Source: Lytechinus pictus
Lineage: Eukaryota
Direction of reading: 5' to 3'
NCBI RefSeq assembly: GCF_037042905.1
Contig: NC_087251.1
Span: forward strand, 17,610,001 to 17,674,000
DNA length: 64,000 bases
The notes beneath the pieces are model-generated. The model did not search any database and was not told where the DNA came from. It saw only the letters and a program-made list of their open reading frames with translations. A program made the position numbers and the translations under genes. Every line of letters starts with the position of its first letter. Positions within the stretch are counted from its first letter, which is position 1. Positions 28,757 through 64,000 of this stretch are shown here, one piece after another.

Positions 28757-29247
28757 CTATTGGGTGTCCGGACACGTAACAGAAATGAAGCCTTGTTTTT
28801 ATCTCAGGAATAAACCAAAAATATAGGTTGAATAGTTTTTTTTTTCACCATCAATATTTGTTCTTTATAATATTTTCTTATATTCTATGCTAAAAAGAAT
28901 TAAAGACATTGCTTGTAAACTTTTCAAAATTGAGAGTAAAAGTCATGTGTCCGGACACCCAACCCGTTCGGACACACAACCACTGGGTATACTATAGTTT
29001 GTCGTAGATCTAGACATTCATCGGAATGCTTCATGTAGGTCTAAAGTAAACCTGTATTTCAGTTTTATTGTGATTAGACAATTATCAGGGGTAGATGTGG
29101 ACTTGTTTCAGACCTCCTTTTTTTTAGTAACGACAAACTGTCGATTTTAGGCCTATTCAAATTTAGGTCAATGTAGGGATATGGTCGCCTTTGATATCGC
29201 CGGTGCTAGCCGGCTAGCGAGATTGTCGATGTAGTCATGGGGTATGA

Positions 29248-29322
29248 AAATAGCGGGGACGGACTAGGCCCAAACTTCAAGCTTGAAAGTTGAAGTTTAG
29301 GCCTAGTCCGTCCCCGCTATTT
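29248..29322. other. 33-bp-stem hairpin
   Basis: AAATAGCGGGGACGGACTAGGCCCAAACTTCAA - 9-nt loop - TTGAAGTTTAGGCCTAGTCCGTCCCCGCTATTT, one mismatch. Confidence 0.85.
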
Positions 29323-30743: not shown

Positions 30744-30879
30744 CAGGGGCCTCGGAAAGGTTTTCAAAGTGGGGGGCTGACCATGCAAAAATCACAATCG
30801 TATGGTCATTTTTACGTTTTTGTACATGGTTTTGGAAAAAATGGGAGGCTGAAGCCCGCCCCCGCTTCCGCGGCCCCTG
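30744..30879 (-). mobile_element. short MITE, inverted copy of 28603-28756
   Basis: Same internal sequence in reverse. 5-bp TSD CATCA. Confidence 0.75.
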
Positions 30880-31338
30880 CATCACCGGGCAATGACATTG
30901 AGGTATACAAGTTTAGGTACAAAATTTCACACAAAATACAAGTAAGAAATATTTTTCTAACGGGAAAATGTATCACCTTTTATTGATATTTTGTACTTCT
31001 ACTAGTTCGTAGTAGTTTTCATGAAAATGAATATTATTTTCCAGTTTAAAGGCCTATTCAATATTAGAATAGGTCTTCTTTTAGTGACATACTTAGGGTT
31101 GTAAGACAAAAAATATTGTATTTTGAAATAAAAATCATGCATAGCTACATGATAATAAAGGTGATCAGGAGATTAAGAAATAATGTTAGTATCACTCCTG
31201 GACCTCATTTCATAAACAAGTTATTACTATTGCAATCTTGTCATTATGACAATTATGGTAAAAGGGCTGAGCAAGAAATTAAGGTTTTTATGTTACCTAA
31301 AACAGGCTGGGGGCAAAGTTACCATGATTACAAGTCTT

Positions 31339-34110: not shown

Positions 34111-36227
34111 GGGGTGACAGAGATGGGGCGATAGAGGGGGGCGAGGGTGTGTGAGAGAGGGGGTGAGAGAGATGGGGCGATAGAGGGGGGCGAGGGTGTG
34201 TGAGAGAGGGGGTGAGAGAGATGGGGCGAGAGAGGGGGCGAGGGTGTGTGAAAGAGGGGGTGAGAGAGATGGGGCGAGAGACGGGGGTGAGAGAGGGGGT
34301 GAGAGAGATGGGGCGAGATAGGGGCGAGGGTGTGCGAGAGAGGGGGTGCATGAGAGAGATGGGGCGAGAGAGGGGGGCGAGGGTGTGTGAAAGAGGGGGT
34401 GAGAGAGATGGGGCGAGGGAGGGGGCGAGGGTGTGTGAAAGAGGGGGTGAGAGAGGGTGTGTTAGAGAGGGGGTGAGAGAGATGGGGTGGGAGGAAGGGG
34501 GGAGAGAGGGGCGAGGGTGTGTGAGAGAAATGGGGTGGGAGGAAGGGGTGAGAGAACTAGGGGCGAGGGAGTGGTACAGGGTTTATGAGAGAGGGGGTGA
34601 GAGATATGGGGCGAGAGAGGGGGGCGAGTGTGTGTGAGACAGGGGGTGAGAGAGATGGGGCGAGGGTGTGTGAGAGAGGGGGTGAGAGAGATGGGGCGAA
34701 AGAGGGGGGCGAGGGTGTGTGAGAGAGGGGGTGAGAGAGATGGGGGGAGATAGGGGCGAGGGTGTGCGAGAGAGGGGGTGAGAGAGATGGGGCGAGAGAG
34801 GGGGGCGAGGGTGTGTGAGAGAGGGGTGAGAGGAAGGGGGGAGAGAGGGGCGAGGGTGTGTGAGAGAAATGGGGTGGGAGGAATGGGTGAGAGAACTAGG
34901 GGCGAGGGAGTGGTACAGGGTTTATGAGAGAGGGGGTGAGAGATATGGGGCGAGAGAGGGGGGCGAGTGTGTGTGAGACAGGGGGTGAGAGAGATGGGGC
35001 GAGGGTGTGTGAGAGAGGGGGTGAGAGAGATGGGGCAAAAGAGGGGGGCGAGGGTGTGTGAGAGAGGGGGTGAGAGAGATGGGGGGAGATAGGGGCGAGG
35101 GTGTGCGAGAGAGGGGGTGAGAGAGATGGGGCGAGAGAGGGGGGCGAGGGTGTGTGAGAGAGGGGTGAGAGAGATGGGGCGAGATAGGGGGCGAGGGTGT
35201 GTGAGAGAGGGGGTGAGAGAGATGGGGCGAGAGAGGGGGCGAGGGTGTGTGAGCGAGGGGGTGAGAGAGATGGGGCGAGAGAGGGGGCGAGGGTGTGTGA
35301 GAGAGGGGGTGAGAGAGATGGGGCGAGAGAGGGGGGCGAGGGTGTGTGAAATAGGGGGTGAGAGAGATGGGGCGAGAGAGGGGGCGAGGGTGTGTGAGAG
35401 AGGGGGTGAGAGAGATGGGGCGAGAGAGGGGGTGAGAGAGATGGGGGGAGATAGGGGGCGAGGGTGTGCGAGAGAGGGGTGAGAGAGATGGGGCGAGAGA
35501 GGGGGGCGAGGGTGTGTGAGAGAGGGGGTGAGAGAGATGGGGCGAGAGAGGGGGGCGAGGGTGTGTGAGAGAGGGGGTGAGAGAGATGGGGCGAGGGTGT
35601 GTGAGAGAGGGGGTGAGAGAGATGGGGCGAGAGAGGGGGCGAGGGTGTGTGAGAGAGGGGGTGAGAGAGATGGGGCGAGAGAGGGGGCGAGGGTGTGTGA
35701 GAGAGGGGGTGAGGAGAGAGAGAGATGGGGCGAGATAGGGGGCGAGGGGGTGCATGAGAGAGATGGGGCGAGGGTGTGTGAAAGAGGGGGTGAGAGAGAT
35801 GGGGTGGAAGGAAGGGGTGAGAGAACTAGGGGCGAGGGAGTGGTACAGGGTGTATGAGAGAGGGGGTGAGAGACATGGGGCGAGATAGGGGGCGAGGGTG
35901 TGTGAGAGAGATGGGGCGAGAGAGGGGGGGAGAGAGATGGGGCGAGGGAGAGGGTGTGTGAAAGAGGGGGTGGCGAGGGTGTATGAGAGAGGGGGTGAGA
36001 GAGATGGGGCGAGAGAGGGGGGCGAGGGTGTGTGAAAGAGGGGGTGAGAGAGGGTGTGTTAGAGAGGGGGTGAGAGAGATGGGGTGGGAGGAAGGGGGGA
36101 GAGAGGGGCGAGGGTGTGTGAAAGAGGGGGTGAGAGAGGGTGTGTTAGAGAGGGGGTGAGAGAGATGGGGTGGGAGGAAGGGGGGAGAGAGGGGCGAGGG
36201 TGTGTGAGAGAGATGGGGTGGGAGGAA
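34111..36227. repeat. GA-rich minisatellite, 2.1 kb
   Basis: Variant units of GAGAGGGGGTGAGAGAGATGGGGCGAGAGAGGGGGCGAGGGTGTGT. Confidence 0.95.
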
Positions 36228-42885: not shown

Positions 42886-44096
42886 AGGTTTCATATAGGT
42901 CATTGCCGATAGAACAGATTGGTTAAACACTTTTCTCTTAAGACAAATTGGCATATTGCTCTTCTTTGAAATTCTTTTACTTGGAGTGCTGATAAAAAAA
43001 AGGAAAATTCGACAAGCAAAAATGAAGTTTCATAACAAAATATAAGTAATTTTGCTTACAGTCATTTTTAAAAACACCTTCCAGAATTCCAAAGGTACGT
43101 GCTCATGCCCATGGAGAATAATACCCGAAGCACCGCCGCTTCCCAGGGTCATGCATATGATAATGCATCAATATTAGGAAGTTTTAATTCATCTTTGGAA
43201 AAGGTAACACTTTGACAAATAGATTTAAATTAAATCAAAAGAACATACTTTAATTCTATGATCGACTTAAATCCCTTTAACGATATTCTCCCGTATCAAT
43301 TCCTTATCAGTATTTCATTTCTCCTTGTAGGATCTGGAGATAAATTCACCTAAAGAATAGGATCCGCCAGGGGGTACGCTATAGTGAACGGACCAAAAAA
43401 GGTCATAGATGCCAGAGAAAGGCAGTACAGTGAGATAATTACGTTTGCAACACCGAGTACAATTCACTATTCTGATTGACCCATGTCGAGTCGGATTCAT
43501 TGAATTAATTAGGACAGTAAGAAGTAGTAGACAAAAAAAAAAGAGAAATTAAAAAGGGGAAAGGAACAGATGGGCTACTACTCCCTACAACATTATCAAC
43601 CCCAGCATTCAGTCAAATTGATTTCTTGCAACCGAAACATAAATGAAGTTTGGCAGGATTGGAGACTACATCCCAGATTACTACAAGGCAAGTAATAAAG
43701 TTATTTACAGTTGGAGCTTTAAGATAGTATAGACTTTAAGACATAGTCTTCTATGATCTTATATCACTTTATTTCAGGAAATGCCACTCGGTCACCTCAA
43801 AAAAAAAAATGAAACCTATCGCGAAGGGTAAAATATGTGCAGAAAGCACACAATACGAGCGTGAAGCAAGAAGTCCCTGCAGCAGGGGTTAGGGCTTGTT
43901 CAAGGGCCCTGGAAGCTAGCTAATACAATCTCTGCCCTATTTTTGGACCATTTCAAAATATTTTTAACACCTTGGTTACTTTTTCAGCAACATATATTCA
44001 TGAAAGCAATTCCACTTCATAAATTAAGACTTGCCAACTTTCACTGAAACCCAAGAAGTAATTAAAAAAAAGAATATTTTTGAACTCTTATTTCTA

Positions 44097-44905
44097 CAGT
44101 GCGTCCCACAAAAAACGAAACCGAGATTTATCATAACTTAATCACAAATACAATAGACAAATGACCTACCATTGTAAAGCTTAGAATCTCCTCTTTCATC
44201 TGAAATTACTTAGATTATTTCTCATTCACGCATGAGTGAGCAAAAACAATTTGAAGAGGGGAGACCAAAAAGTCATTTGGCGGGCTGTATCTGGGTTTCA
44301 AAAAGAAAACCACATTTCTAAAAAGTTCAATATCTGTTCTTTAATTTGATACCTTAATTACAGAAAATGGTCAAGAAAAAAGAAAGTTCTGGTTATTTGA
44401 AATAAGGCTTGAATTTCAATAATTTCATAAAATGAAGAGGTTTTACAGGCTAGCGTTCAAACTCACTCGACACTCCGTTTTGTTGACGATCAGCCATGCA
44501 TGAAGTCTTTTGTTAACCATGCGATAGCTTCTGTGGGAAACCGGTGAAAACACGTTTATTTAATGAAATTATGGAAATACAAGCATTGTTTCGTGGGAAC
44601 GTAACTTTTTTACTTCTTGACCATTTTTTGTGATTAAGGTATCAAATTAAAGAGCCGATATTGAACTTTTTAGGCATGTGATTTTCTTTATAAAATTCAG
44701 ATATCCCCCGCCATATGAGTTTTTGGTATCCTTTCTTCAAATTGTTTTTGCTCACTCATGCGTGAACGAGGAATAATCTAAGTAATATCAGATGAAAGAG
44801 GAGATTCTAAGCTTTACATTGGTAGGTCATTTGTCTATTGTATTTGTGATTAAGTTATGATAAATCATTGCTAAATGTCGGTTTCGTTTTTTCTGGGACG
44901 CACTG
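44097..44905. mobile_element. Tc1/mariner-like MITE with long TIRs
   Basis: TA|CAGTGCGTCCCACAAAAAACGAAACCGA ... TCGGTTTCGTTTTTTCTGGGACGCACTG|TA. Confidence 0.85.
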
Positions 44906-44930
44906 TATAATCACATGTTTACTGAGTTAA

Positions 44931-45525: not shown

Positions 45526-46619
45526 TTAATCTCCAAAGTCACCCCTTCCACCTCAAAAAAAAAAAAAAGAGAAAGATCATGCATTGAGAGGATTTTTCAT
45601 GTATTTATAAGTGTGGTGTGGGTTGTGTGAATAAAGTATTGGGTACATTATGGGCTTAAATGTGCATATAGTTAGTTTGAATTACTGTTGGATACAATCC
45701 ACAGACATCACACACAATTTACAAAGCACACATACATGTAATGTATTACAATGCATTACAATAGAATAGGTCAGTTCAACTCTCAACACATTAACAAGTG
45801 TTTTGAAAACGCAGAAGTATATAGACAATTAACTTCCAGTTTGATGAGTCTAAATTTGATAGGAATGTATTGGTCATCTATTCAAATATATGATATAAGG
45901 AGGTAATTATCAAATATCATCAAGAGTTTTTGAAAAAAATTATGATAAATGAGAACATGTGAATTTGCAGTAATGGGGCCTTCATTGCCAAACTTCTACC
46001 CAGAGCTTCAGGCAGTCAAAGCGCTGGAGAATCCACTAAGAAACCTGCTGCTGAAATGTTGTCATAAACTGAATGGACGATAGCCTCATCAATTTACATG
46101 GAAATGCATAAAGATTGAGTAAAAGAACCCAACAATAAATGTAATTTCCCCCCTAAAATCATGACTGTTACCAAAGTTATAGTTGGGCTCTGGAAACGGC
46201 AAGTAAAACAGTCATTTTGACTGTTGAGCACATACAAATTTCACACAAGACGGTGGGTGCTCATCCCAGTACTGAAGCGGGTGAATGAAGTGCACCTAGC
46301 TTTAACACATGTATGGACAAATCTAGTCATAGTTATTTTACTATAGATGGTTCCCACTGCACTGTCAAAAAAGTGCATTGAGCCCAAAATAGTGTACCGG
46401 TACTAGTATCTCTCTAGCTCTGTGATCGGACATGAAAATGAAAGAGAGGGGAGGAGAAAGGCGGAATATTCTGACTTTTTCCCGATAGATAGAAAACGGC
46501 AAACGTGAGCAAAAACGGAAATAAGATAGATGACGGGGGAAAATCCGGAATTCCGTATAAAAACGGAAAAGTGGCATCCCTGTTATTTAAAGCAAAATTT
46601 TATATCTTATATTTCATTG

Positions 46620-49600
46620 TAGTAGAGCGGATTAGCTCCAAAAATCACAACAATTGTGCAAATTTTGACTAAAGCATAAAACTTTCACAAGTATTAGTAT
46701 ATGCCGTAAGATTTATTTTAAAGATGGGAGGTAAATTGATAAATGCCATTTTCGGCCGTTGCCATGGCAACGGATTAATTTCTCCAAAATAACATACATT
46801 CCCATGTAAATGGTAAATAAACATGATATAGATGACCAAAATGATAATTTTCAGGCTCCCAATTGAATACATATGAAATTTAGAAATATTCAAGATCATC
46901 AAGATAGTTCCAATTGGTCCGTTGCCATAGCAACGGCTTGTTTTTCCCCAGAAAAATAAACATTTTGATTAAAAAAAGTTGTAGAATATGATATATCTTT
47001 AATTTCCCCTAATTTTACAGTGCTTAACAAAGATATTTTGGTTGCTAAATGTGTAAATTACATCTCAAGCCATTGCCATGGCAACCAAATAACATCTAAT
47101 TTACAAAAATAACATGGTTGTCAAGACCATGGATAGGTGGAAAATACAATTGGAATTGACTTAATCTGTATGCTTTAGTTTTGACCCCCTCATTTGAACA
47201 AAAAATACAAAATTGTTCTGCAGGAGTTCTTTATAAAGATAAAATATTATGTTGCTTTGGAAATGCTTGAATTGAATTAAAAAAGGAACAATTTTACAAA
47301 GGGCCCGTTGCCATGGCAACAGCTTATTTCCCTCTAGAAAGGTAAAAATATTGATAAAAATGTAGAATACATTTACGGTATGATCATCATTCCAGTTTCC
47401 CTAATTTCAAGGTACTAATCGAGATATGTTTGTGACTAAATTTATAAATATAACATCTTAAGCCATTGCCATGGCAACCAAATAACATCTAATTTTTTTA
47501 AAAAGTGGATGATAAGGTTAAAAACAGGTGAAAGATACAATGAATGTTAACTTAATGTGCATTCGTAAGGTCTGACCTACTCAACTAATTTAGGGGAAAA
47601 TAATACAGTCAGTGTTCTGCATGAACTAATTAAAATAATAAACATTGATGTTGCCTTGGTAATACTTGAATTCAACGATAAATATCAATGTTCCAAATGG
47701 TCTGTTGCCATAGCAACGGATCATTTACCCAAGAACTGTAGCAGTTTTGATTTTTTTAAAGGACTGTATAATCTGATTTTTCTTTCATTTCCCTTAACTT
47801 TAGGGTAAGAATAGATATGTTTGCTGTTAACATGCAAATAACATATAAATCCATTGTCATGGCAACCAAGTAACATCTAATTTGAAAAAAAATATATAAC
47901 ATGGTTGACATGATAATGGACAGGTGGAAAATGCAATTTATAACAATTAACTCAAGGTTTGACCCAGTCATTTAATTTTGAACAAAGATTACAATGTTTC
48001 GCATTAGTTCATTAGTATGATGAAATTTGAGGTTGCCTTGGTAATGCTTGAACTTAATGATAAATATCAATGTTGCAAAAAGGCCGTTGCCATGGCAATT
48101 TGATCGAAAAACAGTTTAAAATCTGCATTTTGTCATAAATTTCCCCTAATTTTAGGATGCAAAGCATAGATATGTTTGCTGTTGATGTACAAATAACTTT
48201 AGCCATTGCCATGACAACCAAATAACATCTAATTTCAGTGGCTTAATTTGGTTTCTATGTTTTAAGGGTGAACTAGTACATTGGGACTAGCTACAAGGAC
48301 AACCAGTGGTCTGACGTGTCCAAAACCCTCAGACGGCTTCCAAAAATGGAGTTTGAAATGGCTGTTGATATATAAATGGACATATAGGTCATTTCCTATC
48401 AATCTGAGATATATGATTTTGGTGTCTAGACCATGGTTTCAATGGTCAAATAATACACTATCACAAGTTGAATGGACAGTCAGTTGTCCATTATATAAAA
48501 AAATCCAAGATGGCTTCCAAAAATGGAGTCTAAAATTGCCGTTGCTGCATTAAAAAAGTAGTTTGTTTGATATCCTGGAATATGTTTATGTCATGGTTAA
48601 ATGGGTCAAATAATACATTAGGACAAGTAACAAGGACAGTCAGTGGTCAAGTTTGTCCAAAAATCCAAGGTGGCTTCCAAAAATGGAATAGCTCCTGTTA
48701 CTAACAAATGGACGTATTTCGTGTAATATATGTCAGTAAATACATCATGTACATTTGAACAAGTTACAAGGACAGTCCGTAATCCAGTGTCTCTAAACAT
48801 CCAAGATGGCTTCCGACAATTGGAGTCTAATCGGAGTCTGTTACTTAAAAATTGACATAGTTCATGTAAAATCCACCAAGAAAAAATTATTTTGGTGTTC
48901 ACACTTTGGTTTCAAGGTTTTAAAAATATGTTTAGACTGGTTACAATGATATCCAGTTGTCCATTTTTTCCTAAAAATCCAAGAGGATTTTCAAAATGGC
49001 ATCTAAAATGACTTATATCACTCAGAAATTATCTGAGTTCATACAACATCAACATGTGAGAAACATTTTTGGTGTCTACACTGTGGTATGAAGGGTCCAC
49101 TATTACATTAGGACAAGTAACAAGGATGGTTAGTTATCAATTTTTTCCAAAATCCAAGGTAGATTCTAAAATTACATCAATGGGTGCTGTTGCCAACTCT
49201 TACCTGCTTGCATTTTGAATGTAGGCACCAAAATTATTTCTCACAAGTGGATATTACATCCACTTCAAAGTAACAGTTGTCATTTTAGAACCCATTTATG
49301 GAAGCCATCTTGGATTTTCAGGCAAAATGGACAATTGTAATCAGTCCCAAAGTATAATTTGATCCTTGAAACCCTAGTGTAGACACCAAAATAATATCAC
49401 CAGGTGTATTTTTGATGTACTATGTCCATTTTTTAGTAACATTATAACCCCCATTTTTCAAGCCATCTTTGAATTTATTGACACAATAATGACACCTGAC
49501 TGTCCTTTCAACTTGACCAAATGTACAGTATTACCATTTAAATACTAGTGTAGACACCAAAATCATATCCCCATAGTATATTATTAATGAACTATATTAT

Positions 49601-52600
49601 GTCCATATTGAAGTACCAACAGTCAATTTAGACCCCATTTTGGAGGCCATCTTGGATTTTTTAACATACCAGTCCACTGACTGTCCTCGTAACTTGTTCT
49701 AATGCATTAAACCATGGTTTTATGATTATGGTTTAGACATCAAAATCATATTCCCCAGACAGATATTGAACAGACTATGTCCTAATTTATTATTTGACTC
49801 TTGAAAATATGGTTTAGACACCAGAATCACATCTCACAGGCGGATATAGAATGAGCTCTGCCAATTTTTAAGTAACAACAGTCAATTTTAGACCCCATTT
49901 TGTAAGCCATCTTGCTTTTTTTAACATACCAAACCACCGACTGTCCTTGTAACTTGTCCTAATGCATTACTTGACCCTTTAAAATATGGTTTAGACACCA
50001 AAATCATATTCCCCAGACAGATATTGAACAAACTATGTTTATTTGTAAGCAACATTAGACATTGTTTTATATCTTTTTTGGAAGCCATCTTGGAATTTTG
50101 GACATACAAGACCACCGACTGTCCGAGTAGCTTGTCCTAATGTATTATTCGCCTTTGAAATCATAGTTTAGACACCAAAATCATATCTCACAGGTGAATA
50201 TAAAATGAGCTATTCCACTTTTAAGTATCAGCAGCCATTTTTTTCGGAAGCCATATTGGATTTTCGGACATACTTGACTGTCGTTGTAACTTGTCCTAAT
50301 ATTATTAGACTCTTGAAACCAATGATTTAAAGTCAAAATCACTTCCCCTAGGCCAATATGAAATGAGCTACGTCCGCTTTAGGTATCAGCAACCATTTTA
50401 GATTCAATTTTTTGAAGCCAACTTATGTTTTTGGACATTCCAGACCACTGGCTGTCCCTGTAACTTGGCCCTATTTGATTTGATTTGATTTATTGTTTTC
50501 TTCTGCATCCATAACATTCGTATAATACATTTTTCATAACATAATAAACATTATATGCTAGCATTTTTGGCATGAATCATAAATAAAGAGTATTAAAAAG
50601 ATAATTTCAGACAAAAATGATTAACTATATGATATTCACAATTTGCAGGAGAAGGATTGTCATCATAAGCAGATTGCTTGAAAAAAAATGACAATCCCAA
50701 ACTTATACTAATTGAATTAATTAATACATTTATAAAGCAGAATGGGCATATGTACTATTGATCCTTAATAACCAATGAATAAAAAACAAATTAAAGCCAT
50801 TTTACCAAGTAATGGATGAGTTGTGGATTTTTAGCCTACGGCAGCCAGTGAGGGCACCATCTTGGATTTTCCTGTTACCCTGGAGTACTTAATTTTTCTT
50901 TTCAACCTTTCAACCAGTAAGGGTATTTTTTAAAATTTAAATATTTTAATAAGTCTACTTATCATGTAAAATTAGCAGTGAATAGATTATACTTCATGTT
51001 GATTAGATTCATAATTATGTTAATTTAAAAATTATCACAGTATTTCAAAATCTTCTTCATCAAAATCTGTAGTGTAATTTTGAGGGGTCCAGATATGATG
51101 TATTGAGTAAAATTTATTTTTAAAAGTTGTCAGCTAGCCCAGCGAAAGAGTAAAACTGTCGAAATTTTTCATTTTTTTTACAAAAATAAAATTTTGTAAA
51201 AGATTTTGGGTATAGTATTCGTAAAATAATCATATTTTATCCATTTTTCTTTCGGGTTCTCTTTATTTTTTTCTTGGTAATGATTTTTTTTGGGGGGAGT
51301 AGGGTTGCAGAATTTCTGGGAATTTTCTTGATGGAATCTTTTCATGGGAATAAACGGGAATTTGGTGGGAATTTTTTGAATTTTCGGCAATTTTCAAGAA
51401 ATGATGGGAATTTTCAAAAAGTAACAATTTTCTGATATATGCAGAAATTAAAATGCGTACTAGCAGATGATACTTGATAATTCTTTGTCATCAAATTTCG
51501 AGCCAAGTATTATGCTAAAACAGTCAGACAAAGCAAAATTTTAATGATTTCCATGTAAAAGTTGATTTACTGTATTTACATTGATTAGGAGCTCAAGACC
51601 ATGTCAACTCCTCAGATAGACTTTTGATTTCGATTTATCAACGCCTATTATCCCCTTATATATTGATATGATGAACGGCCTTAAAGCACAAATCACACCA
51701 AGACGCTTTCTTCAAAATGGCAGCCTGCGAATACTTTGAACGAAATTGACCAGCCTCGAAATTAGAGTTTCAGGAATTTATTTGAGCCCAAAAAGTCTGA
51801 TATGATTTTTGTAGGTCTTATTTCGATGCCATGTATAATGAAATAAGATGGTGCTTATCATTTAGCATATTTATGTTCAGCACCCTCAAATAAGGGACAA
51901 GGAAATAAAATAAACATATTATTTTTATCAAAATTTGTACTTTTAAGGGACCATTGGCAACATTGATATTTATCATTATGTTCAAGCATTACCAAATCAA
52001 CATATCGTAAGAAATCATGCATAACACTTAATGCGATTTTAAAATTAAAAGAGTAGGTCAAACCTTACGCATATTAAGTTGATTTTATTGTATTTTCCAC
52101 CTGTCCATTATCTTGTCAGCCATGTTATTTTTTGGGTAAATTATATGTTATTTTATTGCCATGGTAATGCCTTAAGATGTTATTTATACATTAACCAACA
52201 GAGATATTCGTGTATGTTTGGCACCCTAAACTTAGTAGAATTGAATGAAAAATAAGATTCTACAAGGTATTTTTTATCAAAGATGGTATTTTAGGGGGAA
52301 TAAAATGACCCGTTGCCATGGGAACAGAACACACATTCGTAAACATTGATATCAATAAATTCAAGCATTACCAAGGCAACGTCAGTTTTTATCATGCTAA
52401 TGAACTCATGCGGAACACTTACTGTATTTTTTGTTCAAAACTTAATGACTGGTCAAAGTCAAACCTTATGTAGATTAAGTAAATCTTTACTTTACATTCC
52501 ACCCGTCCATTATCATTACAACTGTGTTAGTTTGTTTTAAAAATTATATCTTAATTGGTTGCCATGGCAATGGCTGAAGATGTTATTTATTTATTAACAG

Positions 52601-54221
52601 CAAGCATATATATGCTTAGCTCCCTAAAATTGGGGCAAATGAAATAAAAATCAGATTTTACAATTTTTTTTAATCAAACATGATACTTTTCTGGGGGGAA
52701 TGAGCTGTTGCCATGGCAATGGGACATTTGAAACACTAATATTTATCATTAAATTCAAGTATTATCAAGGCAACATAATTTTATTATTCTGATGAACTCA
52801 TACAGAACTCTTACTGAAATTTTTGTTCGAAATTAAATGACCGGCCAAACCTTTCGCATATTGAGTTATTTGTATTTTCCACCTGTCCAAAATCTTGTCA
52901 TCCAAATCATTAGTTTTTAGTATTAGATATTATCTAGTTGGCATGGCAATAGCTTCAGATGTTATTTATACATTTTGCATCAAACATATCGATGTTTAGC
53001 ACACAAAGATTAGGGGAAATGCAAGAAAAATCAGATTCTACAGTCCCTTTTTTAATCAAAACTGATACTAAATGATCTGTTGCTATGGCAACAGGCCATT
53101 TTGAATATTGATATTTATTGTTGAATTGACCCGTTGCCATGGGAACAGAACACACATTTGTAAACATTGATATCAATAAATTCAAGTATTACCAAGGCAA
53201 CATCAATGTTTATCATTCTAATTTAGTTCATGTAGAACACTGACTGAATTATTTTCCCCTAAATTAATTGAGTAGGTCAGACCTTACGAATGCACATTAA
53301 GTTAATATTCATTGTTTTCACCTGTTTTTAACCTTATCATCCACTTTAAAAAAAATTAGATGTTATTTGGTTGCCATGGCAATGGCTTAAGATGTTATAT
53401 TTATAAAATTTAGTCACAAACATATCTCGATTAGTACCTTGAAATTAGGGAAAATGGAATGATGATCTTACTGTACATGTATTTTACATTTTTATCAATA
53501 TTTTTACTTTTCTAGAGGGAAATAAGATGTTGCCATGGCAACGGGTCCTTTGCAAAATTGTTTATTTTTAAATTTAATTCAAGCTTTACCAAGGCAACAT
53601 TAATTTTCATCTTTATAAAGAACTCCTGCAGAACACTTTCTGTATTTTTTGTTCAAATGAGGGGGTCAAATCTTAAGCATACAGATTAAGTTAATTCCAC
53701 TTGTATTTTCCACCTGTCCATTGTCTTGTCAAACATGTTATTTTTGTAAATTAGATGTTATTTGGTTGCCATGGCAATGGCTTGAGATGTAATTTACACA
53801 TTTAGCAACCAAAATATCTTCGATAAGCACTGTAAAGTTAGGGGAAATTCAAGATAAATCATATTCTACAACGTTTTTAAAATCAAAATTGTTACTTTTC
53901 TGGGGAAAAACAAGCCGTTGCCATGGCAACGGACCAATTGGAACTTTCTTGATGATCTTGAATATTTCTAAATTTCATATGTATTCAATTGGGAGCCTGA
54001 AAATTATCATTTTGGTCATCTATATCATGTTTATTAACCATTTACATGGGAATGCATGTTATTTTGGAGAAATTAATCCGTTGCCATGGCAACGGCCGAA
54101 AATGGCATTTATAAATTTACCTCCCATCTTTAAAATAAATCTTACGGCATTTACTAATACTTGTGAAAGTTTCATGCTTTAGTCATAATTTGCACAATTT
54201 TTCGGCTAATCCGCTCTACTA
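46620..54221. mobile_element. 7.6-kb non-autonomous Academ-like element
   Basis: TTG|TAGTAGAGCGGATTAGC ... GCTAATCCGCTCTACTA|TTG. Inverted arms longer than 1 kb, built of GTTGCCATGGCAAC-containing units. No ORF. Confidence 0.82.
50474..50750 (-). mobile_element. 5'-truncated LINE tail inserted in the Academ-like element
   Basis: (TTTGA)3TTTATT tail plus GGATTGTCAT...ATGACAATCC stem-loop. The host repeat resumes at ~50751. Confidence 0.5.
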
Positions 54222-55115
54222 TTGAAAGACATTGAAGTATTAGACAAATTACAAAACCATGAACATTTCTTTAGTTAAAATATCAGGATCTAACTTTCCC
54301 ACCGTCTGGTGTCCCTCACCAGGGAACTGTTCTCCCTTGTCTCATCAAAGATCAGAGACAGTGAAATATAGATGCCATAGGGGCTCCCTGTAAGTCAACC
54401 CAAGAAACAAGACACCGTTCTCTGCCATTCAGGAGTGGGAATTTGCAACCCTCAGCTGAGTTGACCAAAACTTCATATGATGCATATGTTGACTTGGTGG
54501 ATGTTGATGCTGACAATGTAACTGCAAATTGTCAAAAGGAATTATGAGAGGAATATGTAACAGACACACATACATAAACAAAAAGTAGCCCTAGAATAAA
54601 AATTCTTCATTTTTTCCCTCTAATGAAGTACTTGTTTCTTCACATAATCACCGTACTCCCTCAATAAATAATAAAATCTTTGAAAAGGCAGAGTTGCCAG
54701 GCCAAATGTCTCTAGAATCTAGTTATTACTGCATTATTTACCCTCTAGTAATCACAATATAAACCAAACATTTAACACTGATCTCACTCAATGATCAGCC
54801 ACAGCAACATAGAAGTATAATATATGATGGAACAAGCGGCCACAAATAAATAAAAAAAAACCAGCATTGCGTAAGTTTAAAAAATTGTGCAGACGCTACA
54901 TTGCATTGCGTAAGTTTCAATAATTTTGCACAGACGCTGAAAAAAAATTTGAAATCAGCTGAAAAGCTGATCTCTCACACCGCTGAATATAATGATACAA
55001 AGGAAATCTTCTCTAGAACTATATATTATTACCAACATGATATATATAAATAAACTATATTCTATGTACATGAGTAACCTGCAATACATTTCAGATCATC
55101 AAGAAGAATAGACTG

Positions 55116-55262
55116 TCATGATAAAAGCTGTCTTAGTTCGGGAACATAGTCTTTCTTTATGCAGTCTAGGGGTGTCTGTCCTCTGTGGTCTTGCGCAGTC
55201 TTCATACTGGGTTGAGCTTTGAGAAGCACTTTGCAGATTTCTGTATTGCCTTGTTCTGCAGC
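55116..55262 (-). CDS. ANKRD39: ankyrin repeat domain protein 39, last coding exon
   Basis: TGCAG acceptor. Encodes AAEQGNTEICKVLLKAQPSMKTAQDHRGQTPLDCIKKDYVPELRQLLS*. Confidence 0.88.
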   Translation of the reverse strand, partial: AAEQGNTEICKVLLKAQPSMKTAQDHRGQTPLDCIKKDYVPELRQLLS

Positions 55263-55428
55263 CTGCATTGAAAGATAAAAGGAAAGCTCATTTCAAATAG
55301 ATTATTTTCTCAACAATTACAAAATGTCAAAAAATAATTAGCAATGGGTTATTCTTTCAGGCAAGAACAAGCTTTTACTGCACTGGGCTATTTTGACTGC
55401 ATGAATATTCCAGGGGAGGTGGCCTATA

Positions 55429-55941
55429 CAGGGTGTATCAAAAAAAGTTTACACTTTGAAAAAGCCCTGGGAATTAAAAAATATACAACACGTGGATAAT
55501 TTTTTTACGTATAATCTTGGGTTTGGGTCTCATCTATCCAATGAAAGTGAAAGTTTTGACAGAATGTTACACTTGAGTGAGCACTGTCCATTTTTGTAAA
55601 GCTCGCAGAAATTTGTTTGCGCAGAAATGCTCGTTTTCACGCTGTGTCAAGGGTAAAAAGGGCAAAAGATATCTTCAAATCAATTTTAATAGCTAAATTC
55701 TACATGTTCTTCATGATTAAGGTCTACATTTATTCGTATAACTATTTCAAAGTTCTACGCAAATCATTTTTCACTAACTTTTCAAAAGTAAGTGGTGCTC
55801 ATTCAAGTGGAAATATTTTTCGACTGTTATATGCTTAAATGGATCTGTACCAATGTTAAAATGTGGAAAAATTTCAGGATATTACAAATATATGATTTTA
55901 CAGGATTTTTTCTAAGCGTAAACTTTTTTTTATACGCACTG
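55429..55941. mobile_element. Tc1/mariner-like MITE (intronic)
   Basis: TA|CAGGGTGTATCAAAAAAAGTTTAC ... GTAAACTTTTTTTTATACGCACTG|TA. Confidence 0.7.
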
Positions 55942-56197
55942 TATATAACACACCATCCATCCCCCCCCCCCCGATCTCAGCCATTTGTGTGAAAATTAAA
56001 TTGGCATACACATTGCCTATGAGGTTATCTCCATAACCCCTTAATTAAGATTTTTTAAAGAAAACAATTTACTTTCCTTTATTATGCAAATTACACAAAT
56101 TTATGCATAATCTTTTTTCTTTTCTCTGAATCACTAAATAATTCATGCAAATTTTGGGGTTACATACTTATTTTCATATTTATCACAAATTTACTTG

Positions 56198-57307
56198 AAC
56201 TAGAAATTTGACATGTCCAAAGGACACAGATGCCCTCGCTTAAAGCAATCAGCATAAATTTATTCAATATGATTGAACTTAATATTGTGAAGAAACCAGA
56301 ATGCATATATATAATGAACAAATTCAGACCTTTGAACCAACTCACATATATAACGAGCTGTGACCTTTGACCTGTAGACTCCGAATTCGAACTTAGCCTG
56401 TTTAGTGTCATCTACAGGTCTACACACCCAAATTTTTATTTAATCTGTAGATTATTTCATTAGTGATCATGCGGAAACCAACTCGCATATTTAATGAGCT
56501 ATGAACTTTGACCTGCGGACTCCGAATTTGAACTTAGCCTGTATTTTAGTGTCATCTACCTACACACCTAATTTTGTTTAAATCCATTAAATATTTCTTA
56601 GTTATCATGTGGTAAGCAAATTGCATATTTAATGAGCTGTGACCTTTGACCTGCAGACTCCGAATTCGAACTAAGCCCATTTTATAATCTGTTGAATATT
56701 TCATAAGTTATCATACAGAAACCAACTGGCATATTTAATGAGCTGTGACCTTTGACCTGTGGACTGAATTTGAACTTAGCCTGTATTTTGGTGTCATCTA
56801 CCTACACACCTGAATTTTTTTAATCCATTAAATATTTTTTAGTTATCATGTGGAAGCCAACTGGCATATTTAATGAGCTGTGACCTTTGACCTGTAGACT
56901 GAATTCGAACTTAGCCTGTATTTTGGTGTCATCTACCTACACACCTGAATTTTTTTAATCCATTAAATATTTCTTAGTTATCATGTGGAAGCCAACTCGC
57001 ATATTCATTGAGCTGTGACCTTTGACCCGCAGACTCCGAATTTGAACTTAGCCTGTATTTTGGTGTCATCTACCTATGAACTTTGATCATTGACCTGCCG
57101 ACTCCAAATTTGAACTTAGCCTGTATTTTGGCGTCATCTACCTACACACCACAATTTTTTTTTTCTACGTTAACAAAATTTTTTAAAATCCATTAAATAT
57201 TTTTCGAGTTATTGCGCAGAAACCAAGTGGGGGGACGGAAGGACAGACGGACAGGGGCAACGCTTAATGCCCCCTCCGCACTTTGTCTGCGGGGGCATAA
57301 AAAAAAA
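56198..57307 (+). mobile_element. non-autonomous Helentron/DINE-1-type element with internal tandem array
   Basis: 5' AACTAG...ATGCCC sub-TIR, ~120-140-bp tandem cores, a GGAC/AGAC micro-repeat, then a 3' stem-loop CCGCA-CTTTGTC-TGCGG with GGGCAT and an A-run. Confidence 0.7.
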
Positions 57308-57690
57308 TCAATAGATGATTTGTAGGTAAAATAACATGACCACTTACCTGGTACTAGCACATAGCACCACAGTCAAGAATAATCATAAACCAACAGAAGT
57401 TACAGACACTTAAGAGTTTAATCATCAAATTGCTTATTTTCCTATATTCAATTTAAGTTTCTGAAACATAAATGAGATATATCACCTTTAATAGCTCATA
57501 GTTTACATCTCATTTTCATAAGCAGCTTATGCTGTTGGCCTTTGTGTTGGGGAATATTTCGAGGGGAACATTTCAACAATTTTTTAATGTAAAATTGGCT
57601 ACACAAAAAAGACTTGATATGTAGTACCATGTAAAAAAAGATAAATGCAGAACATTGCTATGCATACCAGGAAATTATTTCCTGCCATAC

Positions 57691-57897
57691 CTTATGAAGA
57701 GCTGTCTTCGAATCGCTGTCTACCAAGGTAGCATCAGATTTGGCACGGAGAAGTTGAGATACAATATCAACATGACCGCCATAGGCAGCTCTGTGTAAAG
57801 GACTTGCTCGACCTGACCGGGTTTGAAGGTTTGGATCAGCTCCATGTTGGAGTAACTTGGAAACGATGTCTTTGTGTCCATTGCGGCAAGCATAATG
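57691..57897 (-). CDS. ANKRD39: ankyrin repeat domain protein 39, coding exon 2
   Basis: CAG acceptor. Encodes HYACRNGHKDIVSKLLQHGADPNLQTRSGRASPLHRAAYGGHVDIVSQLLRAKSDATLVDSDSKTALHK. GTATG donor, phase 0. Confidence 0.92.
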
Positions 57898-58470
57898 CTG
57901 TTAAGTATTGAATGAAAATATCACATATGATAAATGAACTATACTACCAGTTAAACATCATTACAGCAATGTCTATTTATTTCCAAAAGTAATAATCTGA
58001 TATCACCAACAGAAAAAAAATGACCTCAGTGTATCCGAAGGTCTTTACTTAGAACAGAAATAAATTAATGCTGAATCAAAGCTGTTGGTCCATCGGTGCC
58101 CGATTGAGGATGCCAGTCACAGGTGTTATTTCCTGAAGACCAGTAGACCAATGAAAGAGTAATTTCTACAAATACAAGAACTTTAGTGTTTAAGACTTAG
58201 ATTTTTACCATTTCATAGACTAAATTTTCTAAAAAAAAGTTTCAAAGGATATTAACCAAGTGAGACTATAGAAATAAGATTAACATAATAGCAATTCTTA
58301 ATTTTCTTGCTTACAAAGTTACATGTATCAACCTGCAACATTACAATATTGTTGCATCCACTCTGCCATATTGGTTTACAACTATTATGATTCTTTGCTT
58401 CTCACCCTGAAGTTTTCAGGTTACATTACAGCAACCTTTGGTGTAGAAAGGTTTATGAGTTTGTACCTAC

Positions 58471-58686
58471 CAGAGCTGTGTACCCCGATTTATCCACACT
58501 ATTAACACTGCATCCAGATGACAGTAGCTTCTCAACTCTTGACAGATCACCACAGAGGGCAGCAGACCAGATCCCCCTATCCCAGTCCATTTCATCCAGT
58601 GTTTGAGTCAGTGAGGGAGTAGGAGATGGGTGTGTACAGCATACAGAGTCACCATGACCAGGATTATGATGGTGTGTCTTTGCCAT
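58471..58686 (-). CDS. ANKRD39: ankyrin repeat domain protein 39, coding exon 1
   Basis: Encodes MAKTHHH...CCTHPSPTPSLTQTLDEMDWDRGIWSAALCGD...DKSGYTAL, matching the ANKRD39 signature QTLxEMDxxRGIWSAA. GTAGG donor. An acceptor at 58711 implies an upstream 5'-UTR exon. Confidence 0.92.
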
Positions 58687-58920
58687 GACCAAGAAGTTCT
58701 TACAATACTCCTGTAGATTAAAAAAAAAAGAATTTCTTTGTTGAAATACACGATCGAGATGCATTGATAGCAGAGTACAAAACACAAGTCAAACACAAAG
58801 GGTAAATGAAAACATAATATATTTGATATAAGCTATCAGTTGCCATTATTAAGGCTATGCTTTTTATTTTTTGTTCACCAAGAAAGTAAATAAAAGTAAC
58901 ATAGTTTTCCATACTTTAAC

Positions 58921-59929
58921 CAAGGCTCGACATTAGCGGTGGCCCGGGGCCACCAGAAATTCACCTTGGGCAACCATTATTGAAAAAATATTAAGTTTTG
59001 GTGGCCCGAATCGGGCAACCAATAATTTTCAGAATAGCCCAATTTTTCTCCCCATTTTGCACGCATTCATCAACTTTCTACAGTTCAAATTGCAAGCCAG
59101 TTCGTCATGCGCCCTTTTTGTTGATCTACACACAAACACACACACAAAATTGGCCTACTGCTATAGCATTAAGTAGCTTTTATCCAGCCGGCCGCGCCTG
59201 CCGGCTGGCGTGAGCTTTGCATGCTTCAAGCAGCTGTGAGTCAGCAGCCTATTCAGACTCAGGGAGCTGCAATACGAAATGTTGCAGCTAAGAAATCTTC
59301 CACAGAACTGTGAAAATCCAAGTCAAAGTCACATTTTACACCAATGAAAAGCCCTTCTACAGACCTTTTTGCCAAAATCTGGTGTATCCTGATTATTTTC
59401 AAGCATTTAAAAGAGGAATCATGACCTCTCTTTTGACTCAAAAAGACCGATTTCCAAATGAAAATAATGCACATAAAGTACATCACAGTCCCACGTGTGC
59501 ATTTGTATGTATGTTGTTACTTGGTTTCTTTTGAAGCTGTGCCTTTTCCGGTCTTTTCGAGCCAAAAATAAACAGACAGTTACTTTCTTTCTTGTTTATA
59601 AATGACTTCTTAAACAACTCTTGAGAATAAGTAAATACTTAGGGAAGGCATTTTATTAATATGAAATGTGAATTTTTCCAACATTAATATTTTTGGCAAA
59701 TATAGCCAGGGAAGGAATTTTCTCACACTTTTCTTTTGCCGTTTTATTATTTTCTTTCATTTTTTTGACAGTGGTTAAAAAACCATTTATACCCATTTAT
59801 TAATTTTCAATGTTTTTCTTTATATTTTTCAGGCCACCAAACTTTAATATCGGGCCCCCCAAAAAAATTATTTGAAGGTTTTGGTGGCCCGAACGGGCCA
59901 CCACCAAAAAAAGTTAATGTGGAGCCTTG
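58921..59929. mobile_element. non-autonomous DNA transposon, 7-bp TSD (P-element-like ends)
   Basis: CTTTAAC|CAAGGCTCGACATTA ... TAATGTGGAGCCTTG|CTTTAAC. Sub-terminal GGTGGCCCG repeats. Confidence 0.75.
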
Positions 59930-59974
59930 CTTTAACTGTTAACGTAGAAAATTATTAATCAATTATGATAAAAG

Positions 59975-60265
59975 CTTGTTTTTAGAGCAAAAAGAAAAAT
60001 CAGACAAGTTGATAGGTGAAAGCTTGAACAATAAGAAAGTTATTCATTTTTTAAAGTTGTAAATACTGGTAATCACTATACCCATGGATACTTCGAATTG
60101 GCAGCATATGTGATGTCATACAAGCATTACTCTTCCATGTACTCAAATACATAATAAGGCTAAAATAAAAAGTTTCACTTCAACTTATATTTTTCTTTCA
60201 TGAGGACATATTCTACCTGGGTTATATTTAGATTACTGCCGCTGGGGAATGGGTACTTAGGAGAT
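59975..60265 (-). mobile_element. partial inverted copy of the 44931-45525 family
   Basis: AAAATCAGACAAGTTGATAGGTGAAAG...GGGGAATGGGTACTTA is the reverse complement of 45175-45500. Confidence 0.7.
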
Positions 60266-62299
60266 TGATAATAAACCCTTAATATCCTCTGTAATTAATC
60301 AATAATTTCAAACAATTGGAACAACTTTTTTAAGGCTTGCTAACTAAGCTCACAATATCAATTTTTCTCATAATTACACTCCTTTAAAAGATGATTTGGT
60401 AATGATTCTGTCTTCCAACTATGGAAATTTTGCTCGCTCGCTTCGCTCACTCGCATTTGGATACTGATATCCAGTAGTTTGTGTCAACAATCAATTACAA
60501 TATAGCCATAAAAAATATTGTGATAGTCCTTAAAGTGAAAGCATTGCATGCAGTTATATACCCCTGTACATATTATACATGCAGCCCATGATGCGATATT
60601 ACACACCACTTGAAAATGGTTTAGGGCAACATATCTTTCTTCCATCTATTGAAAATTTGCTCACTTGCCGCATTATACCAATAATCACACCTCGTGAAAA
60701 TTTTATTCATCATGTCTTCTAATTACTGAAAATATGCTCGCTTGCATTTGGATATGAACTTGTAGGTCAGTAGACAATTTAAAACACAATATCATTAAAA
60801 TTACAGAAATCGAAATAAAGGCCTTTAACTGAAAGATTATGTACATGATTATATGACCCGATTATATGATCTGTATACATATCCATTTAAGTGTGGGGTC
60901 CCCCAATCGCATAATTTTCTGGTCAATATTGAATTCACCTCACCCACTGCTCGGATTTATGCCAATGTCCCCTCTCCATCTGAATCTCCTTTCTCTATAT
61001 ACTTCCTCTACCTCTCTTCTCATTCTCTCCCCCCTTCTATCACATCTTGCCTTTTCCCCTCCATCCACCCTCGCTCCCCGCTCAATTTTTTTACCATACA
61101 TTTTCAATGGTCAGATGTTGATTGCAAGCCTTGCAATGTTTTAGGATATTATATCTGGCAAATAGCTCTAATTTTTTCTATATGCAATAACATCAAGCAG
61201 AGAGGAACAGAGATTGAGATGGAGAGGAGGGGTGGCCAATGTAGTGATTCCATTCATTCATGTTTCATAAAGAAACAAAGATTGAGTGCAAGAGAAATCA
61301 AGAGAGAAAGAGAAACTAAAGATAGGAAAAGAGATTAAAGATGGAAGGGTGGGGTGGCGAGGACATACATGTAGTATGGGAGAGAGAGAGAGAGATTGCA
61401 TACAAGATAGAGGGGAGAGAGCAAGAGAGAAAGACAAACTATAGAAAGAAACTACAGAGATTCAGGGGGGGGGGCGGGCAAGGACATTATGCGAGTCCAT
61501 TCATTCATGATTGCAAGAGAAAAAGGGGAGATGAGAGGTTGCAAGAGAGATTGCACGACTGGTATCAAAACTAGAGAAAGGCGGGGGAGATTGGGATGGA
61601 GTCCCTTCATTTGTGTACAGTACATGAGTGTGCTCATCCAATAGTTTGGGTACGAGATGATGAAGCTATACAATTCTTGTGAAGTCCATGCACTTGCACA
61701 CTTTTTTTATTTTTTAGTTCAACTAATGGGCATTTTCATGGTAACTGACATTACACGGCGCAATTTTACACACCTTTCATTGTGTGTATATCTAAAACAA
61801 AAAATGATGGGAGTTTGCTTTTGATAGAGTTGATAAAGTGAATGTTGCTGTATACTCTGATACTAAGTTTTTCAATGCAACCACAAAAGAACAAAAGAAT
61901 CAGCGCAGTCTTAGCGCAATTGGATTTCTGCACCTCAGCCTAACCCTTGAAGCTGGCTACTGAAGTGCAGTTAACTGTATTGGCAGGGAGAATATTCCAG
62001 TCTGATTAGCCTGAGTCCAAGTCTGATGGCATCAGCCTCAGCTCAGGAATAAAAGTTTTGTGCTAAGATTACAAAGTAAAGCAAGTTAAAGGCGCATTTG
62101 TCATGTTTTGCCGTTGTGACATAATCGTGATATAGTCCCCAAATCCAAAAATTGGGATTATTAGAATCACACCTACCAGAATGCATGAAAATCACTTCTT
62201 TTCTCCAGAACAGTCCCCAACTCTCGCACAGCCTGAGAACTTGCGAAATGATAACACACACAAATGAAACACACTTACACTTGGGTTCTCTCCCTATTA

Positions 62300-63060
62300 T
62301 ATACTCGTGATACAGTCCCCACTCTACGGGAAATCAAGTTTGATTTTCACGGCGGTGGGGACAGTTTCAACAGTATAGTATACTCGTGATGCAGTCCCCA
62401 CGCTATGGCATACACAGTTCACTTTGCACGCAGTGGGGACAGTTCAAACTGTATAGCTATACTCGTGATACAATCCCCACGCTATGGGATACACATTTCG
62501 TTTGGCACGCAGTGGGGATAACTCCAACAGTATATTATACTCGTGATACCGTCCCCTCACAACATAAAATCGTGCTCGTTCGACAAGGGGATGGGGACAG
62601 TTTCCCAGTGCAATGTGACAAGGAAGACTCATTCAAAACCTTCGGGAAATTGTCGTCATCATATTATATTATCATTTTATCATAATTATCATTATTATTT
62701 TATCATAATTATTATTATTGTTATTAAATCATAATTATCATTATTCTCTATTATCACTATTTTAATGTTATTTAATCATAATTATCATTATTATTATGCA
62801 GTCCCCGCGCTATGGGATACACAGTTCACTTTGCACGCAGTGGGGACAGTTCCAACAGTGTAGCTATACTCGTGATACCGTCCCCTCACAACATAAAATC
62901 GTACTCGTTCGACAAGGGGATGGGGACAGTTTCCCAGTGCAACGTGACAAGGAAGACTCATTCAAAACCTTCAGGAATTATTATTATTGTCATCATATTA
63001 TATTATCATTATCATCATTTTATCATAATTATCATTATTTTATTGTTAATGTTATTTAAT
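62300..63060. repeat. ~79-bp hairpin-containing tandem repeat with ~400-bp block duplication
   Basis: ATACTCGTGATACAGTCCCC...GTGGGGACAG units at ~62301, 62380, 62459, 62537 and 62867, separated into two blocks by (ATT/ATC)n tracts. Confidence 0.8.
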
Positions 63061-63634
63061 TTTTAATCATAATTATCATTATTGTTATTATTATTACTAT
63101 CATCATCATAAACATCATTTTCATGTGTTCTGGTACGGTAGGTGTAATTCTAATGTTGAGGGCTCAAACAGACGAAACGTGAATTGTAGGTCGAGAATTT
63201 AGTGATTCCTGAAACAATCTGGAACTATAAAGTCTTATCTATTGGTGACGATAAGCAAGCAGTCAATAAGCCGTTGTAAAACATTCCAACATAACAATTT
63301 ATATATTCAGATGCTAAATATGGTCATTGATCATGTTGATCAGCACAAGAAAATAAAGTTACACAGGTCTGCTCTCGAGAGGAAATCTGTTTCTCTGACT
63401 AAACAAAGTTGAAAAGAAAATGTGTTGCATCGCAACGCATCTAACAACGCGTTGCGTGTTGATGCAAAAAGGCGCACAACTCTGCAACCAGCGATGTTAC
63501 GTAACAATAGGATACGTAACAATCGCATTACCACACTAATAATCCCCATTTTTGGATTTGGGGACTATATCACGATTATGCCGTTTGGGGTTCTATTCTC
63601 AAAACTTCCAAAAGCTACAGTAGGATGGGGGATC

Positions 63635-63858
63635 GGGTGTCCGGACACTTTATATTTTTGAAGCCTTCTTTTTTGTCTTAAGATTACACTAAAAATATGA
63701 ATTCAATAGTTGTAATCATCTTCTATTTTGTTCTCTATAATATTTTCTAAAATTTTGTACTAAAATTTGATGAAACTTCGCTTGTAATTTTTTCCAAATG
63801 ACTTTCTAAAATTGATCATCCGGACACACAACCTGTCCGGACACACAACAACTGGGTA
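63635..63858 (+). mobile_element. MITE fragment related to 28761-28989
   Basis: Shared GGGTGTCCGGACAC ... CCGGACACACAAC(C/A)ACTGGGTA. Confidence 0.55.
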
Positions 63859-64000
63859 CCGGTATACAATCTCTTTCCTTGCTAAAAAATCAACCGGGTT
63901 CAGGAAAGAATCGCGTTGAGCATTCATTTGACTCTTGACTTGAAGTAGACAGGAATAACCGTCGTTTCTGGGGTTTCCTTAACAATTCTGACATTTCACC

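Follow-up and report, generated by a model that had tools for sequence, protein, structure and literature searches.

The 64,000-nucleotide stretch of the Lytechinus pictus genome analysed here (NCBI RefSeq assembly GCF_037042905.1, contig NC_087251.1, positions 17,610,001 to 17,674,000, forward strand; hereafter the window) contains at 46620-54221 a non-coding DNA transposon of 7,602 bp with TAG..CTA ends, whose long inverted arms carry dense arrays of an X-box palindrome. It is a real non-autonomous terminal inverted repeat (TIR) transposon of the foldback type and one copy of a dispersed family present in at least two species labels. Judging from the letters of the arms, we tentatively propose that predicted docking of a host RFX-family factor there benefits the element, a reading to which we give a probability of about 0.45. 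Five sites inside the element match GTTGCCATGGCAAC exactly (46758, 47307, 53529, 53917 and 54080) and the word GTTGCCATAGCAAC is found at 46921 and 47704; the number of X-box-like sites rises from these 5 to 17, 20 and 26 when up to one, two and three mismatches to GTTGCCATGGCAAC are allowed. At the same four levels the remaining 56.4 kb of the window gave 0, 0, 0 and 6 sites, and dinucleotide shuffles of the element (n=300) averaged 0.34 sites, and never had more than 3, at up to three mismatches. The original prediction, made from the letters of the stretch, had located all these exact and GTTGCCATAGCAAC sites correctly except for one placed at 53528, off by one; its figure of more than 20 X-box-like sites holds at up to three mismatches, but not at stricter limits, where 20 remain at up to two.

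Eight of the 26 sites conform to the strict consensus GTNRCC(N0-3)RGYAAC, the biochemical RFX1 consensus (PMC3414849), and three match exactly CGTTGCCATGGCAACG, which is tabulated as the 16-bp RFX4 consensus from systematic evolution of ligands by exponential enrichment (SELEX; PMC5449588), in agreement with the earlier claim that the motif is the RFX optimum. The element shares with the X-box of the ciliary RFX/DAF-19 system the exact 14-bp palindrome and, three times over, the 16-bp RFX4 optimum (PMC3414849, PMC3245922, PMC5449588); ciliary promoters, however, carry one or two X-boxes, whereas the element has about 20 strong sites, is mobile and lies downstream of a gene. No description of X-box arrays in DNA transposons was found among the titles listed in the literature searched, most subscription journals and Repbase Reports being outside its coverage, and the literature found on the 14-mer deals, by title, with RFX motifs or ciliary genes only.

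The boxes are distributed over arm units of approximately 390 bp as follows.

46620..48237, forward strand: left arm, one partial unit and about 3.6 units of about 390 bp
46758, 46921, 47307, 47704, 48086: A boxes of the left arm
47072, 47465, 47853, 48205: B boxes of the left arm
47251, 47650, 48032: degenerate C boxes of the left arm
51640..54221, reverse strand: right arm, one partial unit, five units and one decayed unit
52312, 52707, 53079, 53133, 53529, 53917, 54080: A boxes of the right arm
52155, 52558, 52937, 53370, 53765: B boxes of the right arm
52367, 52761, 53188, 53585: C boxes of the right arm

Each unit of about 390 bp thus holds three related palindromes at different places, namely the A box (consensus GTTGCCATGGCAAC, 12 copies), the B box (ATTGCCATGGCAAC, 9 copies) and a degenerate C box (7 copies with 3-4 mismatches). 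Self-BLAST aligned 46620-48235 with 54221-52541 at 82.8% identity; arm-to-arm identity was 91-97% in the outermost 1.2 kb and fell to 78-82% closer to the centre, and arm units that are not mirror counterparts were 65-78% identical to one another. Long TIRs with internal tandem repeats, together with a non-coding middle, make up the architecture of a foldback element. None of the 55 stop-free frames of at least 40 amino acids in the element matched Pfam (E<=0.01), and coding potential was rejected on this ground. Conservation was scored on seven of the ten aligned arm units, two mirror duplicates and the decayed unit having been dropped, in an alignment partly anchored on the boxes themselves. 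The A and B boxes were the best-kept 14-base windows, scoring 0.92 and 0.90, where spacers averaged 0.70. Five of the seven substitutions in the 12 A boxes, which amount to only about five independent events, affect bases that the RFX consensus of PMC3414849 leaves degenerate (N and R).

Both termini open with TAGTAGAGCGGATTAGC reading inward and have the same first 17 bases. The TAG..CTA ends (at 46620 and 54221) and the TTG on both flanks were seen as originally stated, and the target-site duplication (TSD) and the ends are laid out as below.

46617..46619, forward strand: left TSD, TTG (alternatively ATTG)
54222..54224, forward strand: right TSD, TTG
46620..46664, forward strand: left, long end, with a 17-bp terminal block, a 15-bp spacer and the 13-bp block AATTGTGCAAATT (46652-46664)
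54187..54221, reverse strand: right, short end, with the same two blocks and a 5-bp spacer

The end spacers of 15 and 5 bp are offset by 10 bp, that is, one helical turn, and beyond the 13-bp block the two ends align without gaps through the remainder of the 120 bases compared. As an A precedes each flanking TTG, a 4-bp ATTG duplication is possible, with one end then one base short. A TA duplication with GTAGAG ends is formally possible too, but the TTG..TTG would then be coincidental; one contig of sequencing run X1 starts at 54221, which fits the TTG reading, the TA reading predicting 54220. The 17-bp terminal block has no internal copy with fewer than 6 mismatches, internal matches to the 13-bp block do not exceed those in shuffled sequence, and any stretch of the terminal 130 bp differs from the X-box by at least 7 mismatches. 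Since the box is unlike the terminal blocks, the X-box arrays are not duplicated transposon ends.

Between the arms the element contains the following parts.

48238..50870, no strand assigned: inner domain of units of about 177 bp in inverted arrangement, centre near 49190-49220
50475..50749, reverse strand: nested insert of about 275 bp that closes with AATAAA and a (TCAAA)n tail, as non-long-terminal-repeat (LINE-like) retroelements do at their 3' ends
50870..51640, no strand assigned: non-repeated middle segment, common to other family copies, in which no coding capacity was found

Each of the 13 aligned units of the inner domain carries a CCAAGATGGC or GCCATNTT-like word, and 11 GCCATNTT sites fall in this 2.7-kb domain as against 15 in the rest of the window. 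We take this inner word to be YY1-like. Its only cited relative is the YY2 motif GTCCGCCATTA (PMC5449588). The original prediction did not include this inner array, the nested insert or the 10-bp offset between the ends. That the inner 177-bp domain might be a separate nested element was considered and rejected: no ends or TSD belonging to it alone were found, and the runs cover it alongside the arms. For these reasons it is treated as part of the family, and we infer that it is the left arm which carries a deletion. The nested insert, on the other hand, is a separate high-depth repeat. A contig of run X9 spans exactly 50475-50750, whereas in organism C a contig of run X11 bypasses the insert, joining 50471 to 50774, and the summed depth of X11 reaches approximately 212,000 at 50650. 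In the middle segment, a contig of run X1 (51501-51785) differs in 3 letters and has a depth of 113.

Part of the stretch is contained in 18 of 23 public runs listed, from 7 studies and with three organism labels; none of the 18 is recorded as RNA, which says nothing either way, and four of the runs were mapped. In run X9 (organism B) all element-only bins had depth while the unique flank bins had 0; in run X11 (organism C) the summed depth was 540-16,500 in element bins and 75,600 at the nested insert, as against 0-225 in flank-only bins. Runs of three species labels cover the element bins, and in two of them the unique flanks are near zero, which establishes that the family is dispersed. The pieces from organism C are about 88-91% identical to the element, and the runs contain several subfamilies. 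Depths in run X1 (104-113 for centre contigs and 6-10 for flanks) were not used as copy number, as X1 may be RNA. In X11 it was also observed that the non-coding element aligns at about 90% while its 3' flanks barely align at 85%, a contrast in organism C that might be due to horizontal transfer or to a master copy that evolves slowly.

The element lies beside a host gene encoding an ankyrin-repeat protein.

55116..55262, reverse strand: last exon of the host ankyrin-repeat gene

The stop codon of this gene (55118-55116) is about 895 bp from the element; earlier exons are at 58683-58471 and 57897-57691, and the first coding exon is about 4.5 kb away. From its N-terminal motif we take the gene to be ANKRD39. 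The prediction of an element 0.9 kb downstream of the ANKRD39 stop stands as to the distance and the ankyrin protein, the name being taken from that motif. The flank contig of run X1 (organism A) starts exactly at 54221, the de Bruijn branch point that, on the TTG reading, a mixture of filled and empty alleles should produce. Among the 15 joints listed of 323, none was that of the empty site. The branch point indirectly suggests that an empty allele exists and that some individuals lack the insertion, and we consider it likely that the insertion in the 3' region of ANKRD39 is recent and polymorphic. In the stranded RNA run X21, where inferences are drawn from about 15 reads per bin, the depth on the ANKRD39 strand was 5.1, 2.1 and 8.1 over the right flank, 0.8 in the right arm and 6.5-8.9 on the left flank, and the opposite strand had 0 in flank-only bins. 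On the ANKRD39 strand, AATAAA and ATTAAA are both absent from the interval separating the stop from the element, and from the left flank before 45530. The simplest reading is an ANKRD39 3' untranslated region of about 2 kb which spans the empty site; an alternative is polyadenylation at an AATAAA near 54030 combined with an outward promoter in the left arm. In the left arm the same-strand depth climbs toward the element end (0.8, 2.6, 3.6, 5.3), and a weak hint of outward RNA from the arms came from summed depths of about 12 versus 4 in the outer two bins of both arms.

Foldback elements are already known in sea urchins and Drosophila, the TU elements of sea urchins being reportedly those of Liebermann in 1983. 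TAG...CTA termini are probably the rule in Academ elements, a superfamily of which AcademX is said to be a lineage (Kojima, in 2020). AcademX makes TSDs of 3-4 bp (PMC10045372). The element resembles it in the 3-4-bp TSD, and probably in the TAG..CTA ends, and differs in that AcademX has a DDE transposase and an XPG nuclease, none of which was found in this copy. Repbase assigns an element to a classified family that agrees with it both in the first 11 bases and in the length of the TSD (PMC4455052). The Academ assignment is drawn from the ends, because neither transposase nor XPG nuclease is present in the copy and no partner was found; the element-end pattern gave 0 loci in metagenome contigs, and hence no autonomous partner there. 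The original suggestion of an Academ-like element therefore fits as to the TSD, though no transposase ties the family to Academ, and membership is plausible. A search with the 17-mer end block in viral DNA gave 7 loci, all without an X-box, which were taken as chance. A Mutator-type, Tetris-like foldback was rejected, as it needs an 8-10-bp TSD and the element flanks share only 3-4 bases, and so was identity with a Helentron or a HINE (a non-autonomous Helentron), as these lack true TIRs, and the TIRs of the element extend to its last base and are accompanied by a TSD. In overall build, the element is akin to Galileo and Tetris of Drosophila, with long repetitive TIRs, tandem modules, outer and inner domains, a non-coding middle, unequal numbers of units per arm and a non-autonomous nature (PMC3573991, PMC4079207). 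In contrast to the 8-10-bp TSD of Tetris it has a 3-bp TSD, TAG ends and unequal end spacers. Furthermore, TIR-220 of Tetris shares a stretch with the Tetris end, whereas the modules of the present element are not derived from its ends and match sites of host transcription factors (RFX, YY1-like).

The same palindrome was also found arrayed in other DNA. We scanned metagenome contigs for two X-boxes 136-166 bases apart and obtained at least 120 loci. Among the matches listed, these cluster as 109, 10 and 1. The distance from one box to the next is mostly 140-149 bases, an array has at most 13 boxes, and the boxes lie within tandem units of about 145 bp that belong to two families with HINE-like ends. 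Of the 108 open frames in the longer loci the 40 longest were compared with Pfam, and 7 had matches (Mab-21, Ski2, C2H2, rhodopsin-type G-protein-coupled receptor (GPCR), RRM and RT-RNase H); because of these flank-encoded domains the loci are regarded as animal-type host DNA. One locus, L028, has a terminal hairpin beside one subterminal inverted repeat and a complementary repeat at the opposite end, and the second family opens with a T-rich hairpin module. By structure only, the metagenome elements are assigned as HINE-like, of the presumed rolling-circle type. They share with HINEs the subterminal inverted repeat, the terminal hairpin and central tandem repeats, here of about 145 bp (PMC7492417); RFX sites in the repeats are not mentioned in the covered portions of that description. 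They are unlike the element at 46620-54221, where true TIRs and a TSD occur, and are not similar to it in sequence, BLAST of the metagenome loci listed against it giving 0 matches (E<=1e-4). Beside one such HINE-like X-box element, at L011 11107-11140, we noticed the palindromic YY1-like word CAAGATGGCGGCCGCCGCCATCTTG, which echoes the inner word of the sea urchin element. The paired-box pattern was absent from viral sequences (0 loci), and 4 loci in prokaryote genomes have no bearing on the element: one is duplicated across an assembly gap, two are bacterial repeats and one is a short AT-rich contig, seemingly foreign. The X-box palindrome repeats occur intergenically in a Clostridium metagenome-assembled genome and three times in one of Magnetococcales (L130 10001-10158 and 11264; L129 10001-10150), and are possibly bacterial operator repeats.

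We propose that the arm arrays are putative docking sites for a host RFX-family factor, and that the inner arrays may play the same part for a YY1-type factor. The arrays would have been kept because they help the element, most likely by making its ends accessible, or else by keeping the promoter of its partner active, in RFX-rich cells. RFX factors are abundant in the flagellated male germline, which would be the likely place, as jumps are inherited there, and any effects on ciliary genes or ANKRD39 would be a by-product. The element itself would depend on a transposase supplied in trans and recognising the short two-block ends, with their spacers one helical turn apart, and mobilisation by an Academ-type enzyme seems to us reasonably probable. 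Its arrival in the transcribed 3' region of ANKRD39 would be recent, and some chromosomes probably lack it. Among the readings offered originally, that of a mobile cluster of predicted RFX sites is the best supported. A wider version, in which Academ-like and HINE-like transposons of different animals converged on arrays of optimal RFX sites at about nucleosome spacing, opening male-germline chromatin through the regulator of cilia and flagella and scattering polymorphic RFX clusters as enhancers or sinks, is speculative and we hold it to be doubtful.

Several observations weigh against RFX docking. The best non-box windows of the arm units reach 0.87, 0.85, 0.85 and 0.84, the degenerate C box stands at spacer level (0.71), and the comparison of the two arms, with 9 differences in 168 box positions as opposed to 134 in 1,403 spacer positions, is not significant (Fisher p=0.087). 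The claim that the motifs are conserved while the spacers diverge therefore holds for the A and B boxes and fails for the C box and for the best-kept spacer blocks, and the excess in box conservation appears real in direction and modest in size. In the 440 metagenome boxes among the matches listed, most substitutions are G>A or C>T and affect positions 1, 4, 5 and 6 of the half-site, a spectrum that plain mutation bias explains. The metagenome scan was aimed at the X-box without a control palindrome, so that the frequency of other arrays is uncalibrated, and the period of about 145 lies inside the preset 136-166 spacing window. Central repeats of HINEs are captured from varied sources (PMC7492417), and the arrays may accordingly not be independent origins. 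A second foldback in the window, at 20096-24381, is built on another palindrome, which implies that elements of this kind commonly carry arrays of palindromes. The arms also show little RNA (depth 0.7-8, in one run of unrecorded tissue).

The palindromes could instead be secondary sites for the element's own transposase or a helper, as in Galileo, whose subterminal repeats hold secondary transposase sites (PMC3573991, PMC4079207), the likeness to RFX sites being due to convergence or to an RFX-like winged-helix domain in the partner. A dimeric protein would fit their dyad symmetry, among 14-mers it is the boxes that are kept best, and the use of a different palindrome by the foldback at 20096-24381 agrees with this explanation. 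We nevertheless regard it as rather unlikely, because the X-box resembles neither terminal block, the match extends to the 16-bp RFX4 optimum, and the 14-mer is also arrayed in HINE-like elements, whose expected Rep/helicase is unrelated; a shared host factor explains arrays in elements expected to use unrelated enzymes more easily than enzyme specificity does. The same two points, the HINE-like arrays and the dissimilarity of box and terminal motifs, led us to favour host-factor docking and weaken the original proposal of a transposase site that mimics the X-box.

It is likewise unlikely, and a shade more so, that the boxes are neutral passengers, in which case a unit that by chance contained an X-box, captured from a host promoter or from another element, would have been amplified in tandem and kept by recent duplication and arm-to-arm conversion without selection. 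The modest conservation excess, the decayed C box and the p value of 0.087 are in keeping with this, as are the mutation-bias spectrum of the metagenome boxes and the habit of HINEs of picking up unrelated repeats (PMC7492417). Yet the units are only 65-78% identical while their A and B boxes are kept at about 0.9, three related boxes occupy different places in one unit, and the X-box word recurs in three unrelated element families. A cluster exapted by the host as an RFX enhancer, regulating ANKRD39 or a neighbour in ciliated cells, is very improbable. In its favour are the density of near-optimal sites at a distance of 0.9 kb from the stop and of about 4.5 kb from the first coding exon, and left-arm RNA that climbs outward from 0.8 to 5.3 on one strand. 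But the copy appears young, with outer arms that are 95-96% identical and an intact TSD, is probably polymorphic and sits downstream, in the 3' transcribed region, and for this reason the host-selected ANKRD39 enhancer of the earlier suggestion is unlikely. The boxes are common to the whole family and so predate the insertion beside ANKRD39; no X-box-like site with up to three mismatches is present in 54700-64000, near the ANKRD39 start, and validated X-boxes are typically promoter-proximal (PMC3245922).

If RFX factors do occupy the arrays, this would answer the old question of why tandem modules whose motifs are conserved persist in foldback and HINE elements, and would name a host factor exploited by non-autonomous elements for access to the germline. 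With about 20 strong sites per copy and apparent polymorphism, sea urchin crosses could then show, allele by allele, whether transposons seed or titrate the ciliary regulon. Without RFX binding, the element would be an ordinary new foldback family. The 10-bp asymmetry of the ends is a separate clue to end pairing by the little-studied Academ transposase.

The window contains other elements as well. The foldback at 20096-24381 is 92.6% self-inverted, with TATGAG..CTCATA ends and GTTTTA on both flanks; the palindrome TTATTTATAAATAA occurs 25 times in its arms, which consist of 31-bp units, and its inner units measure about 280 bp. Its 6-bp TSD and TAY ends are reminiscent of IS3EU. In an intron of ANKRD39, at approximately 56335-57310, lies a HINE-like element of 135-bp units, most of them with AGGTCAAAGGTCA, presumably a nuclear-receptor direct repeat of the DR1 type; six of the seven matches to this word in the window fall inside that element, where 0.06 are expected, and we count this array in favour of docking by host factors. 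Further inverted-repeat elements are found at 14537-18903, 25602-26862, 44092-44910, 7069-7673 and 28600-30882, and include one with CCC..GGG ends, Tc1-like miniature inverted-repeat elements starting with TACAGTG, and others. At 34110-36191 and 24616-24910 there are long tandem arrays that are rich in GA, repeat every 49 bp and show an extreme skew between the strands. Lastly, a lone exact RFX-consensus site at 1875-1888, which could be a genuine host X-box, lies upstream of a gene for a GPCR of the rhodopsin family; the exons of this gene (8253-8585 and 12874-13653) match 7tm_1 and have an opsin-like look.

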